DNA from: an uncultured Muribaculaceae bacterium
GTDB lineage: Bacteria > Bacillota_I > Bacilli_A > RF39 > UBA660
Assembly (NCBI GenBank): GCA_964372145.1
Contig: CAYJPM010000002.1
Coordinates: 364 to 64,363 of the forward strand
Length of the DNA stretch: 64,000 nt
Reading direction: 5' to 3'
Shown here in pieces: positions 58,566 to 61,490 of this stretch. The position numbers and the translations under genes were made by a program. A model generated the notes under the pieces. That model was given only the letters and a program-made list of their open reading frames with translations, ran no database searches and was not told where the DNA came from. Positions within the stretch are counted from its first letter, which is position 1. Each line of letters opens with the position of its first letter.

Positions 58566-58967
58566 TTAATTACTGTTATCGTTAACTGTTGATGTATTAC
58601 ATACATTTGGATTATCTATACAATAATCGTTTCTTGTTTCTACACAATTACCTGGATTAGCTACACAAGATGAACATACTTGATAATCATTTTCATTTTC
58701 ATCAAATCCACTTAATATTCCAAAAGCAACATTTACTATAGTTGGTATAAAGAATATTACCACACCTGCAATAAATCTTCTTAATAAAGAACTAGTTGCA
58801 TTTTTAATTTCTTTTTCATCACTTGATACTACAGCTTTACCTAAATCTACAGCTCCCATTATAATTATAATAACTGGTATAACAATTTTGAATACTGTCA
58901 TTATTTGTCCTACAAATTCCCAAACTTCATAAGTATCGGCACAAAAACCTATATCCATAATATACAC
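58566..58967 (-). CDS. pilin-like membrane protein with Cys-rich C-terminal module (third member of the Cys-knob family)
   Basis: Two hydrophobic helices followed by YQVCSSCVANPGNCVETRNDYCIDNPNVC, homologous to the C-termini of the two Flp-like pilins. Confidence 0.4.
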   Translation of the reverse strand: MYIMDIGFCADTYEVWEFVGQIMTVFKIVIPVIIIIMGAVDLGKAVVSSDEKEIKNATSSLLRRFIAGVVIFFIPTIVNVAFGILSGFDENENDYQVCSSCVANPGNCVETRNDYCIDNPNVCNTSTVNDNSN

Positions 58968-59015
58968 TCCTTCTCTTTATACTTTTATTTTACATAAGTT
59001 TAACATATAAGTCAA

Positions 59016-60008
59016 CTAAAATATAGAAAATATACCATTATTTGACGATGTTTCACTTACTCTAGTAAATCCTAAATTAATAAGTAAATTTATTATAATT
59101 TCATCTTTATCTAACTTGTCATCTACGTATGGTAAATTATAAAATATTTTACTGTTACTTTCTTTTTCAAAATCTTCAACATCTTTTAAACTTAATACGC
59201 TTTTATTTAACATTATTTTTTTACCATTTAATTTAGTAAATATTTTACTATCTTTATTAATCAGTTTATTAAGTTTAATTAAACCAGGCTCAATTAAATA
59301 TAGTACATCTGTACAAATATCTTCGTTACTTTCATTTAAATCTAATATAATTACTTCTTTATCACTATTCATAGTAATAGAATTATTTAAGTTATCACTA
59401 GTTATACTTTCTAAATTTTTATCACTAAAATACATAAAATCATTATTATTTACTTCAAATGTTTTAACTTTATAAGTTTTTTCTATATTTTTGGTCATTA
59501 AATATGCAAGTGTTGTAGCTCCTGCATGACTTGTAATATTTTTTATACCTATTATTCTTTGACCAATAAATCCTTCAGTTTCTTGTTTCTCAACTTTATC
59601 ATTAAACCCAATTAAAGGTGATGTTCCATCTAATTGTTGATATTTTGCTACATCTTTATAAGTATTAGGATTTTCAAGTAAGAAAATAACTGTATCAGCT
59701 TTTTTAGTGAAATTATATATTCCCATAGATACTAATTGTGATAAATACATTGGTGAATTAACTTTTTCAGAGTCATTTAATAAAAGTATTACATTAGTCA
59801 TATCTATATTCATTGATAGTTCTTGTATTGATTTTATATCATCATAATTTTTTATAGCAGTTATATCTAAAATCATTTTATTATAGAAAAAATTACTGAA
59901 CTGAAGAACCAATTCATTAACATTAAATTCTCCATTTAATGTTTTAATTACATCTATATCAAGTGATCCTAGTAAATTTTGATATTTGTTTGAAACTATT
60001 ACATTCAT
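59016..60008 (-). CDS. TadZ/CpaE-like pilus-assembly protein (degenerate ParA/MinD ATPase)
   Basis: IIGIKNITSHAGATTLAYLM sits at the deviant Walker A position (TadZ: KGGVGATTLA); N-terminal receiver-like region. Confidence 0.45.
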   Translation of the reverse strand: MNVIVSNKYQNLLGSLDIDVIKTLNGEFNVNELVLQFSNFFYNKMILDITAIKNYDDIKSIQELSMNIDMTNVILLLNDSEKVNSPMYLSQLVSMGIYNFTKKADTVIFLLENPNTYKDVAKYQQLDGTSPLIGFNDKVEKQETEGFIGQRIIGIKNITSHAGATTLAYLMTKNIEKTYKVKTFEVNNNDFMYFSDKNLESITSDNLNNSITMNSDKEVIILDLNESNEDICTDVLYLIEPGLIKLNKLINKDSKIFTKLNGKKIMLNKSVLSLKDVEDFEKESNSKIFYNLPYVDDKLDKDEIIINLLINLGFTRVSETSSNNGIFSIF

Positions 60009-60023
60009 TTTATTTTCTCCTTT

Positions 60024-60470
60024 TTATTTATTTAAACCATTCGTGTTTGGGAAATTTATATTATTTGTTTCACCATTTATATTAAATGTAGTAAAATTAC
60101 CTAAAAATGGTAAGCCAAATTCATAAAATAGTATTATTTCGAATCTTTTTTCATCTTGTATTACACAGTAATAATATTCTTCACTAGATGAAGCTAATGA
60201 TATTTTACCAGTATCTGTTAAACTATTAGCTCCATAATACCCTTCTGGACACTGTCCTTTTGCGTTATAATTATTTGAAGTTAAATAGTTATTGATTATT
60301 ATTTTAGAATCTAATGTGTATCCTTCATATTTTTCTAACATTGTCACTACTTCATTTCTTAAAGCAAATGCTTCTGAATAATTAAGAGCTAGTGTTAAAA
60401 AGGCTGTAAATAAAAATATAAATGTTACTACTAAACCAAATATCCAAGTGGTACCGGTTGCTTCTCTCAT
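60024..60470 (-). CDS. TadE-like pseudopilin
   Basis: MREATG leader, hydrophobic TWIFGLVVTFIFLFTAFL, 148 aa. Confidence 0.5.
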   Translation of the reverse strand: MREATGTTWIFGLVVTFIFLFTAFLTLALNYSEAFALRNEVVTMLEKYEGYTLDSKIIINNYLTSNNYNAKGQCPEGYYGANSLTDTGKISLASSSEEYYYCVIQDEKRFEIILFYEFGLPFLGNFTTFNINGETNNINFPNTNGLNK

Positions 60471-60482
60471 ACTTTATCTCCT

Positions 60483-60962
60483 TTAATTACTACAATATCC
60501 GTATAACTGTTTTGTTTCACCTGTTAAGTGAAATTCAAATACTTCTCTTATTACAGGAACATCTAGTTTGTAAAATACCATTACAGTATAGTAACAACTA
60601 TTATTGTTATTACCATCTAAACTTCCTGATTCATTTTTTATATTTAATGTTTCTTTTATACAGATAGAAGACTGTCCAGGATTTGAGTTAAGTTCACCAT
60701 TTCTGTCAAAACCAACGTATCCTTCTTCTGGACAAGTCCCTACTGATCTATATGATGCATCTAAAAATTCATCTACTATTTCTTGTGGAAGTTGATTTGT
60801 TCTTATATCTATTCCATTTAGATCTTCAATCGCAGTAACAATATTATCTTTAACAGTATATGCTTTAGATCTATTAATAGTTATTGTCATAATACCTGTA
60901 AAAAGTAATATAAATAAAATAACTATATTAAATAAGGCTACGCCTCCTATTGATTCTTTCAC
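60483..60962 (-). CDS. TadE-like pseudopilin
   Basis: MKESIG leader, GVALFNIVILFILLFTGIM, 159 aa. Confidence 0.5.
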   Translation of the reverse strand: MKESIGGVALFNIVILFILLFTGIMTITINRSKAYTVKDNIVTAIEDLNGIDIRTNQLPQEIVDEFLDASYRSVGTCPEEGYVGFDRNGELNSNPGQSSICIKETLNIKNESGSLDGNNNNSCYYTVMVFYKLDVPVIREVFEFHLTGETKQLYGYCSN

Positions 60963-60967
60963 TTATA

Positions 60968-61201
60968 TCACCCCTTATAGCTACAACTAAATTTATTTTC
61001 AGGATTATCTTTTATGTAACACTCTACCTCAGTGCAATTACCAGTTGGACATCCTTCACAAATAGCATTTTTACAATTAGATGCTGCATCTAAATTATCT
61101 GATATCATTGGCCAAAGATACATGAAAAAAAAGGCTGCCATTACACTAACAGCAGCTGCAACTATTACAGTAGTGTTTAGTTCTCCGACAGCCTCTTTCA
61201 T
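60968..61201 (-). CDS. Flp-type pilin-like protein with 6-Cys C-terminal module
   Basis: MKEAVG leader, ELNTTVIVAAAVSVMAAFFF hydrophobic core, then NCKNAICEGCPTGNCTEVECYIKDNPENKFSC. Confidence 0.5.
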   Translation of the reverse strand: MKEAVGELNTTVIVAAAVSVMAAFFFMYLWPMISDNLDAASNCKNAICEGCPTGNCTEVECYIKDNPENKFSCSYKG

Positions 61202-61235
61202 TCTTTTATTCTCCCTTTAATATTTTATTTTTGTT

Positions 61236-61490
61236 TTAAGGTGTTGTTGTAGTTGTATCATTTATTGGACATGTTATTGTTTGAGTAGCTCCTGTTTCAT
61301 CTATATATGAACAATCTAGTGTGTCACCAGTTGCGCTTGTTTGACAATTAAATGCATTCGCGCATCTTGTGTTTTGTTCAATGTTACGTTGTATCATAGG
61401 CCATACAAATGCATAAAAGAATGCCGCTACTGCTGCAATTGCTACTACAGTAATTACTGTCATGTTTAATTCTCCTGTTGCCTCTTTCAT
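61236..61490 (-). CDS. Flp-type pilin-like protein with 4-Cys C-terminal module
   Basis: MKEATG leader, ELNMTVITVVAIAAVAAFFY, then C...NC...DCSYIDE...C. Confidence 0.5.
   Translation of the reverse strand: MKEATGELNMTVITVVAIAAVAAFFYAFVWPMIQRNIEQNTRCANAFNCQTSATGDTLDCSYIDETGATQTITCPINDTTTTTP

Follow-up and report, generated by a model that had tools for sequence, protein, structure and literature searches.

Three short genes near one end of a 64,000-nt stretch of contig CAYJPM010000002.1 (here called the window), recorded as DNA of an uncultured Muribaculaceae bacterium, encode small cysteine-rich membrane proteins and raise the question of whether these share one C-terminal module or belong to filament systems with cysteines of their own. 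The proteins are P1 (77 aa, 60968..61201), P2 (84 aa, 61236..61490) and P3 (130 aa, 58566..58958); like all genes of the pilus locus they are encoded on the minus strand, in a tight single string. An earlier note on this DNA had taken P1 and P2 for Flp-like pilins and P3 for a longer protein with the same disulfide-stabilised knob. The reading favored here, which we consider probable, is that two unrelated families of filament subunits are neighbors, type IV-like pilins (P1 and P2) and a VirB2-like protein (P3), each with its own extracytoplasmic cysteine framework. We regard as firm the assignment of the proteins to families, the synteny and the conservation and parity of the cysteines. As a whole, the interval represents the distal part of a surface-filament super-locus that is conserved among uncultured gut Bacilli of low GC content.

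Homologs of P3 were collected by a word-index search (55 proteins) and by a scan of one genome per species, which gave at least 379 relatives and from which 79 loci were kept. Open reading frames (ORFs) of the loci were sorted into classes with phmmer, and motifs were scanned over 3,502 ORFs of 82 loci. Classes are lettered B to M in the order of the genes (P2, P1 and P3 are classes H, I, and M) and loci are cited by number (e.g., L002).

The tails of P1, P2, and P3

The C-termini quoted in the earlier note are all encoded where it had placed them: P1 ends in ...NCKNAICEGCPTGNCTEVECYIKDNPENKFSCSYKG, P2 in ...RCANAFNCQTSATGDTLDCSYIDETGATQTITCPINDTTTTTP and P3 in ...VCSSCVANPGNCVETRNDYCIDNPNVCNTSTVNDNSN. 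The composite pattern drawn from them fits P1 and P3 and fails in P2, which has neither the CxxC nor the DNP. If the resemblance reflected a genuine shared cysteine-rich knob, P1 and P3 would have exchanged it by domain shuffling or gene conversion and would present the same adhesive or cross-linking tip. In favor of such an exchange, P1 and P3 of the window both fit C-xx-C-x(3-6)-NC-x-E-...-I-x-DNP-...-C and are the only sequences among the scanned ORFs that carry the motif of the note (a relaxed form adds one M protein); furthermore, some P1-type pilins read C-xx-C-x-NP-xx-C, like the P3-family consensus C-xx-C-xxx-P-xx-C.

Smith-Waterman alignments of the tails were compared with 5000 composition-preserving shuffles. 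With permissive gap penalties (-4/-1) P1 and P3 gave p=0.015, which favors a common knob and counts against two separate families; stricter penalties gave p=0.056 (-11/-1) and 0.059 (-6/-1), and fixing the cysteine positions gave p=0.14. For P2 and P3 the values were p=0.19-0.57. At the DNA level similarity between the P1 and P3 tails is absent (p=0.72 against codon shuffles), by which recent gene conversion between the two genes is ruled out. The family profiles of the P1 and P3 tails cannot be aligned either (hhalign, 0.3%, E=0.18, 6 columns) and those of P2 and P3 gave nothing, though the control, P1 against P2, does align (71%, E=3.7e-5, 40 columns). Outside the window the motif is absent from all other P1-type pilins (46 in all) and from all other M-family proteins (199 in all).

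The history of the aligned cysteines also argues against exchange. C51 and C56 are derived in P1 (the CxxC form occurs in 12 of 131 representatives) and align with C95, C98, and C105, which are ancestral in P3; conversely, C113 and C120 are derived in P3, occurring in its nearest relatives, and align with C61 and C73, ancestral in P1. The derived states do not co-occur in close relatives: loci L005 and L031 combine a CxxC pilin with a three-cysteine P3 tail, and L002 and L003 combine a four-cysteine pilin with a five-cysteine P3 tail. Besides, the odd tail of P3 needs a cysteine of the head, while the head of P1 is self-contained.

Two outcomes had been named in advance as fatal to a shared module, alignments no better than shuffled cysteine-rich controls and absence of the module from orthologous pilins; for the link between the pilins and P3 the first is essentially what was found, and no ortholog fits the motif. 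The absence of homology between the P1 and P3 tails is firm. The motif that seemed to unite them is peculiar to the window genome and statistically marginal, and the CxxC...NC...DNP...C resemblance is a coincidence or a weak convergence of tails rich in Cys, Asn, and Pro. The shared knob is thus left with hardly any credibility, being close to refuted, and the idea of a "shared module" should not be propagated.

P1 and P2 as probable cysteine-braced pilins of a Tad-like machine

The relationship between P1 and P2 is of a different kind. The DNA-level score of their N-termini was reached by 0 of 2000 codon shuffles, and their tails gave p=0.006-0.07 in the Smith-Waterman test. P1 and P2 are full-length paralogs and do not carry a mobile module. 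A word-index search with P1 alone recovered only P1 itself, and looking up its exact sequence returned no contig that encodes it; a profile of the P1-type orthologs taken from the loci retrieved 242 proteins, all unnamed or "hypothetical" and, with one listed exception, without a Pfam domain. Among 1.84 billion cluster representatives, scanned exhaustively with HMMER, just 417 matched at E<=0.001; the pilin family is narrow.

Four consecutive genes encode proteins whose first residues, M-[KR]-E-[AS]-x-G, lead into a hydrophobic helix: P2 (leader MKEATG), P1 (MKEAVG) and the minor-pilin-like proteins J (MKESIG; 159 aa, 60483..60962) and K (MREATG; 148 aa, 60024..60470). A short, positively charged leader that ends in Gly and precedes a hydrophobic helix of some 20 or more residues is what is expected of type IV pilins, and all four have it. 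The N-terminus is near-invariant (MKEATGELNMTV...) in the 51 orthologs of P2, and G6 is conserved in at least 90% of 120 pilin sequences. The AlphaFold2 model of P1, built from 120 sequences (mean predicted local distance difference test score, pLDDT, 79.8), consists of a helix (residues 3-45) and two strands (58-63 and 66-74), i.e., the long helix and small beta-hairpin head of the type IV pilin layout. Almost invariant N-termini combined with hypervariable heads are typical of surface-exposed pilins.

The cysteines of the head form a framework of their own. Alignments of 39 and of 120 sequences show no variation at the head positions C43, A46, C48, C61, and C73 or at the C-terminal G77, which in P1 belongs to a conserved C-x-[FYW]-[KR]-G; C51 and C56 of P1 (framework at 60983..61075) are not conserved and represent a lineage-specific extra pair. 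P2 has a four-cysteine head in which C43, C49, C60, and C74 (61269..61364) align to the framework of P1. The number of cysteines in the whole protein is even (4, 6, or 8) in all 51 P2-type orthologs, which have 4 or 6, and in 45 of 46 P1-type pilins; the sole odd P1-type pilin has five cysteines, one of them within the membrane helix. Likewise, the tail count is even in 129 of 131 full-length representatives at 50% identity (2 in 3, 4 in 57, 6 in 69), and the two odd ones have aberrant C-termini that look frameshifted. Counts shift only by steps of two, and additional pairs are without exception found between C48 and C61, in the form C-x-C...C-x-C or C-xx-C...C-xxx-C; the form C-xx-C-x(3-9)-C is found in 12 of the 131 representatives and DNP in 4. 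Cysteine makes up 5.3-6.4% of the pilins and 0.25-1.4% of the machinery proteins in the cytoplasm and membrane (classes C to G and L).

Even counts argue for paired disulfides, and the cysteine heads are very probably disulfide frameworks. The part of the earlier note that described an unusual cysteine-rich, disulfide-stabilised head thus holds at this strength for the two small pilins, on the grounds of family-wide conservation and parity. A connectivity C43-C73 and C48-C61 plus inner pairs, in the manner of a disulfide ladder, is suggested by the stepwise counts and the placement of the additional pairs. It weighs against this account that no thiol-disulfide oxidoreductase was seen in the window, where CxxC motifs were listed by regular expression without a family search; no thioredoxin-type WCxxC is evident in that listing of the window ORFs.

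The lack of a visible oxidoreductase gene would also suit clusters that bind metal (Zn-ribbon-like or Fe-S), a role fitting for a strictly anaerobic gut organism. CxxC motifs are present, and the pilin profile matches eL40, a zinc-ribbon protein of the C4 type, and a Krueppel-like zinc finger, in both cases weakly and without significance (E=0.19-0.24). However, the ancestral spacing, C-x4-C...C-x11-C, is without the CxxC/CPxC knuckles of a zinc ribbon; cysteine numbers that change two at a time (4, 6, and 8) speak for pairing and not for four-ligand sites; and the position of the clusters, after the helix in the pilins and at the outer end of the hairpin in P3, predicts an extracytoplasmic site by the positive-inside rule. 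The pairing of a head cysteine with an odd tail in the P3 family, including members with one cysteine in each, is incompatible with a metal site. Metal binding is for these reasons quite improbable, and disulfide bracing is preferred.

A precursor of a ribosomally synthesised and post-translationally modified peptide (SCIFF-like, with six cysteines in a short peptide) was also considered for the small proteins and ruled out from context, i.e., the membrane helices and the pilus operon; no radical-SAM-like gene was seen adjoining the pilins, although no family search of the neighbors was made.

Upstream of the pilin genes lie those of the putative machine. The ATPase of class E, of which the window holds the C-terminal part (63282..64000, cut by the window end), matches Pfam T2SSE (7.4e-25); among solved structures its full-length ortholog (L002:4639-5724) is closest to CpaF (1.5e-17), then to archaeal FlaI, GspE-type ATPases and finally VirB11. 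It is followed by the polytopic membrane protein F (62360..63274) and the membrane protein G (61572..62360), candidate platform proteins in the positions of TadB and TadC, respectively, which are syntenic (F in about 50 loci) and show mean column identities of 76 and 72%; the values for F, G, and the soluble protein L range between 60 and 76%. The start of F is uncertain, as its 304-aa GTG form is absent from the public protein collection. In relatives, class C upstream is a DUF5411 protein (2.6e-46) and class D weakly resembles RcpC/CpaB (E=3.9e-4; 20.7 bits, under the Pfam cut-off of 28.8 bits). By its ATPase, the weak RcpC/CpaB-like match and the gene order the system is Tad-like, and it is far from characterised Tad systems.

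Several results weigh against an assignment of P1 and P2 to a pilus of this type. No pilin model in Pfam or NCBIfam was matched by either protein (no PF04964 at E<=1 and no PF07963 N-methylation match), and J and K have no significant Pfam match; across the pilins, J, K, L, F, G, and B, nothing usable came from Pfam or NCBIfam. The pilin leader, MKEA[VT]G|ELN[TM]TV, has its Glu at +1 and not at +5, and EY is missing. Neither the P1 model in a Foldseek search of the PDB nor the pilin-family profile against PDB sequences gave anything significant; as Foldseek was equally negative for the model of P3, both fold assignments rest on the layout of secondary structure. F and G have no T2SSF or other significant Pfam match, nor a PDB profile match, and similarity to TadB/TadC is undetectable; the prepilin peptidase motif G-x-G-D-[VAILFM]-[KR] (family A24) occurs neither in the window nor in the 82 loci. 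As for the classification in the earlier note, pilin-like subunits of a Tad-like system remain, and membership of the Flp family, with no PF04964 match and no G/xxxxEY, does not.

These negative results are compatible with another possibility, namely that the small proteins are simple bitopic or hairpin membrane proteins (anchors or secretion accessory factors) and that MKEATG is not a prepilin signal; the missing pilin models and peptidase motif, the Glu at +1 and the unrecognisable F and G would all agree with it. On the other hand, simple membrane proteins would not readily account for four consecutive genes with a common short, charged, Gly-ending leader and hydrophobic helix, for the location of the pilin genes directly after a CpaF-like ATPase and two polytopic proteins, for an extremely conserved N-terminus joined to a hypervariable head, or for the predicted helix with a small beta head. 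We regard this possibility as improbable for the pilins and, on the evidence given in the next section, for P3 as well.

In the arrangement that is preferred, the paralogs P2 and P1 would serve as subunits of a type IV filament system of the Tad/archaeal type that is very divergent and comprises the CpaF-like ATPase, two conserved polytopic proteins, the CpaB-like protein and the DUF5411 protein. Each pilin would begin with a charged leader of six residues, the last one Gly, continue with a hydrophobic helix some 40 residues long and end in a beta-hairpin head of only about 30-35 residues, braced by two ancestral disulfides to which some lineages add one or two; in P1 the additional pair would be C51/C56. 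Such a brace would keep a small head folded and protease-resistant in the gut, with the loops between cysteines free to vary. Leader cleavage, filament assembly and an adhesive or cell-contact function are putative.

The closest known systems share part of this architecture. Flp pilins have almost no head, and disulfide-bonded type IV pilins are represented by the D-region of type IVa pilins and by Bacillus subtilis ComGC, which needs BdbDC. The locus resembles Tad/Flp systems (type IVc; Caulobacter Cpa, Aggregatibacter Tad) in the CpaF-closest ATPase, the sub-cut-off RcpC/CpaB-like protein, the two polytopic proteins after the ATPase, the very small major subunits and the two larger pilin-like proteins that follow them in the TadE/TadF position. 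It differs in that no Flp_Fap, TadE, or T2SSF model is matched, in the leader (MKEATG|ELN, compared to G|xxxxEY in Flp), in subunits with a head of 30-35 residues and 4-8 cysteines, in the DUF5411 protein and a secreted cysteine-rich protein of about 1000 aa upstream, and in the lack of a TadV-like peptidase in the locus. With type IVa pilins and ComGC, the latter a Gram-positive precedent, P1 and P2 have in common disulfides that would stabilize the C-terminal head part; here, two to four disulfides are proposed for a head of about 35 residues, their cysteines amount to 10-15% of head residues and are its only conserved features, and there is no N_methyl motif.

Among gut bacteria, Clostridia (Roseburia, Ruminococcus, Eubacterium) have a putative type IV pilus or type II secretion system-like operon with DUF5411 and a CpaF-family ATPase (PMC9523054). 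That operon resembles the present one in combining these two genes, in a Gram-positive gut bacterium, with mostly unannotated ones; in a comparison made by description only, it differs in its recognisable PilC/GspF and internalin-like protein, and neither cysteine-rich pilins nor VirB2-like genes are described for it. The uncultured gut order TANB77 has a Tad-like pilus cluster with a 640-aa TadA, a 693-aa fused TadC/TadB, TadZ, and CpaE (PMC11680825). Both are conserved, clade-specific Tad-like clusters of uncultured gut Firmicutes with unannotated pilin-like genes; the pilin-like proteins of TANB77 have 143-621 aa, its cluster contains no mini-pilins and no VirB2-like gene (PMC11680825), and identity of the two was ruled out on architecture. 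A literature search on RF39 with pili or type IV secretion systems (T4SSs), and on cysteine-rich Flp pilins in Firmicutes, found no description of the system.

P3, a VirB2-like hairpin

P3 matches PF18895 (T4SS_pilin) with 30.1 bits, above the cut-off of 26.6, over residues 14-80 of its 133-aa form, and 50 of its 55 relatives match at E<=0.01. The true start is the ATG at 58958, which gives 130 aa; this form is found in the public protein collection and the 133-aa GTG form is not. The AlphaFold2 model (pLDDT 84) shows two helices (10-45 and 48-82) folded into a hairpin, and further short helices in the tail. The connecting loop is rich in Lys/Arg and both ends are acidic, so that by the positive-inside rule both ends are predicted outside. 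Against the VirB2-like assignment it must be mentioned that a Foldseek search of the PDB with the model returned nothing significant; the family profile also gave nothing significant against PDB sequences. Rather than the longer pilin with the same knob that had been proposed, the third protein is a PF18895 two-helix hairpin with a differently built cysteine framework.

In this framework the head cysteine C6 (58941..58943) is invariant (55/55 sequences), and the tail cluster (C95, C98, C105, C113, and C120; 58599..58676) contains a conserved C-xx-C-x(5-8)-C, formed by the first three, of which C98 is invariant and the other two reach at least 90% conservation; C113 and C120 occur in the closest relatives only. 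The pattern was counted in the 92 of 132 short family members (<=170 aa) in which the core motif could be located. Head and tail cysteines number 1+3 in 67 proteins, 1+5 in 12, 1+1 in 6 and 1+7 in 1; in four "1+4" cases one cysteine lies inside the second membrane helix. The 1+1 pattern, exactly one head and one tail cysteine, defines a paralog class (...GWYGTCGI). An odd tail count that needs the head cysteine, together with this class, argues for a disulfide joining the ends of the hairpin, and the family pattern suggests a head-to-tail disulfide staple.

In TrbC/VirB2 pilins the ends are closed by a peptide bond (head-to-tail cyclisation). By analogy the staple of P3 would be a functional equivalent of this cyclisation. 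P3 would be a VirB2-like (PF18895) pilin of a Gram-positive-type T4SS, a hairpin with both termini outside in which the invariant N-terminal cysteine pairs with one of the odd tail cysteines and staples the ends.

The gene neighborhood of the relatives is in line with such a role. In 35 related loci an M gene, or an array of 1-8 copies, is followed by a conserved T4SS-like cluster that encodes, in the VirB6 position, a protein of about 900 aa with multiple membrane passes, then proteins of about 110 and 190 aa and a VirB4-like ATPase of 594 aa (TraG P-loop and AAA_10 domains); where the sequence reaches far enough, genes for a SpoIID and NlpC/P60 hydrolase, for a lipoprotein and for the coupling protein VirD4 (T4SS-DNA_transf) come in addition. 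Of the loci with Tad-like genes, 19 run straight into the VirB4/VirB6/VirD4 cluster; in another 27, the window among them, the stretch of at least 4 kb that follows the last M is free of T4SS genes. The lack of T4SS genes near P3 in the window is a point against a T4SS pilin there, and for this reason its T4SS role is deduced from relatives. Examples of the complete Gram-positive-type T4SS cluster, which is chromosomal and syntenic across species and in which no relaxase was seen in the stretches examined, are L017:10822-20314 and, among the 35 loci, those of L008, L019, L021, L025, L040, and L068.

VirB2-like PF18895 arrays adjoining T4SSs of the MPF-FATA type have been described in Patescibacteria, and Gram-positive T4SS classes are stated to lack virB2 homologs (10.1101/2025.01.22.634366; PMC12102498). 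The P3 family shares with these arrays and with VirB2/TrbC the PF18895 match, the two-helix hairpin and, in relatives, the arrays of 1-8 paralogs near VirB4-, VirB6-, and VirD4-like genes, here too in a chromosomal, syntenic and not obviously mobile locus. It differs in its hosts, which are Bacilli, in the invariant head cysteine and odd tail, a putative staple in place of peptide-bond cyclisation, in the window and 26 other loci that are not followed by T4SS genes, and in hairpins fused to large extracellular domains.

Such fusions, with the VirB2-like hairpin C-terminal to the extracellular domains of large proteins, were observed at L037:12603-14453, L008:10586-13394, and L073:10358-11119; one carries Peptidase_M15_4 and Amidase_3 (a wall hydrolase) and the others cysteine-rich domains of unknown type. 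With this position the hairpin may also act as a membrane anchor or sorting module, and its use as a C-terminal membrane module on large proteins, the hydrolase included, would be expected of the simple membrane proteins considered above. Opposed to this is the fit of PF18895 and of the arrays beside VirB4/VirB6/VirD4 to the description from Patescibacteria (10.1101/2025.01.22.634366), and the VirB2-like reading is retained.

The super-locus, its surroundings and its significance

The gene order B-C-D-E-F-G-H-I-J-K-L-M, based on the phmmer classes, is kept in about 50 species-level loci, and the window holds E to M. The product of the first gene, B (L002:188-3391; about 35 loci), is secreted; it has about 1000 aa, a signal peptide, 3.7% Cys (10-70 cysteines) and no Pfam match, and it may be an adhesin or a filament-associated protein. 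Protein L (330 aa, 59016..60008), conserved and syntenic, always co-occurs with the pilin genes and is missing whenever they are missing; it has no match in Pfam or, by profile, in PDB sequences, and its invariant stretch G-x-K-N-x-T-x-H-A-G-A-T-T looks like a degenerate P-loop. In nine variant loci (L007, L009, L013, L038, L047, L051, L060, L065, and L069) H to L are missing together and the order is B-C-D-E-F-G-M, with M directly after the platform genes at about 9970-10400. The four of these examined downstream (L009, L038, L060, and L065) have unrelated housekeeping genes after the VirB2-like gene; by their N-termini these include two large ORFs resembling a helicase-nuclease pair and a LemA-like ORF. 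Insertions of 1.5-5.7 kb between G and the first pilin gene were seen at L048:2186-7054, L019:1451-7054, L076:4717-7193, and L005:5803-7368. They code for large membrane proteins of the multi-pass type or for a secreted protein of 1867 aa and might specify pilin-modifying enzymes; the pair in L048, judged from N-termini, looks like a putative YfhO-type glycosyltransferase.

All hosts of the loci are uncultured metagenome-assembled genomes (MAGs) from gut, rumen, or caecum, labeled Bacilli, Tenericutes, Erysipelotrichaceae, Candidatus Coprovivens, Firmicutes CAG:460, Clostridium CAG:609 and, in several cases, "Muribaculaceae". The many records titled "uncultured Muribaculaceae bacterium" (Bacteroidota) include L004, L005, L010, L011, L023, L028, L031, and others. 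These labels look wrong, because the operon is otherwise confined to MAGs of Bacilli and related Firmicutes and the gene content of the window is Firmicutes-like. At about 24% G+C, the window contains a T-box leader and a class B RNase P, and its ORF list includes genes that, from their N-termini, look like sporulation genes. Every protein of the locus is a singleton cluster at 90% identity, derived from a single NCBI contig of 64,578 bases. Downstream of P3 there follow a hairpin, a 141-aa ORF, an ABC transporter and a CCA-adding enzyme and, further on and shared with L001 and L003, genes for a DnaD-like protein, endonuclease III, a penicillin-binding protein and RecU. The pilus locus lies on the chromosome and is inherited vertically.

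The best sigma-70-like promoter match of the region (TTGATA-17-TATAAT, 11/12; 61518..61546, minus strand) lies just upstream of the P2 gene; promoter-like matches numbered 31, compared to 28 expected in shuffles of this AT-rich DNA, and are weak evidence. A further one (TTGACT-17-TAAAAT; 58987-59015, minus strand), with the weak statistics usual in AT-rich DNA, lies inside the 57-nt gap between L and P3, and P3 may therefore also have its own transcription. Directly 3' of the P3 stop codon, an AT-only inverted repeat with a T-run (58536..58565, minus strand) likely marks the end of the transcription unit; the terminator scan missed it because it demands three G-C pairs. Elsewhere in the window (16351-28630, mostly minus strand) a second cluster encodes unannotated secreted proteins, several of which begin with a Lys-rich stretch, a membrane helix and the motif ...[YF]AWF; 7 of 10 scanned proteins have no Pfam match. 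It adjoins a 756-aa protein with a Peptidase_S24-like domain, and we take it to be reminiscent of SipW/TasA-type fiber loci.

The most interesting point is why the VirB2-like gene stays with the Tad-like operon where no T4SS genes follow, as in the 27 species-level loci in which it keeps its place at the 3' end of the operon without adjacent VirB4, VirB6, or VirD4 genes. It is conceivable, if rather unlikely, that in these gut Bacilli with small genomes the VirB2-like protein belongs with the Tad-like machine to a single functional apparatus. In one version the type IV filament machine may handle, or cooperate with, a VirB2-family subunit, an undescribed cross-family hybrid; in another, by analogy with what Patescibacteria need for their epibiotic life, pilus and T4SS may constitute a conserved chromosomal cell-contact apparatus, in which disulfide stapling would replace pilin cyclisation.

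If the reading of two separate families is true, P1 and P2 are among the smallest headed type IV-like pilins, with a head held almost wholly by two to four disulfides, and show a minimal-sequence route to a hypervariable, protease-resistant filament surface. The VirB2-like family would provide a second route, the disulfide staple, to the closed-ends topology of classical T-pilins, and Gram-positive-type T4SSs could then have VirB2-like pilin arrays outside Patescibacteria. Conserved, yet without annotation, in dozens of uncultured species of gut Bacilli, the super-locus would therefore be a candidate determinant of attachment to host or partner cells.

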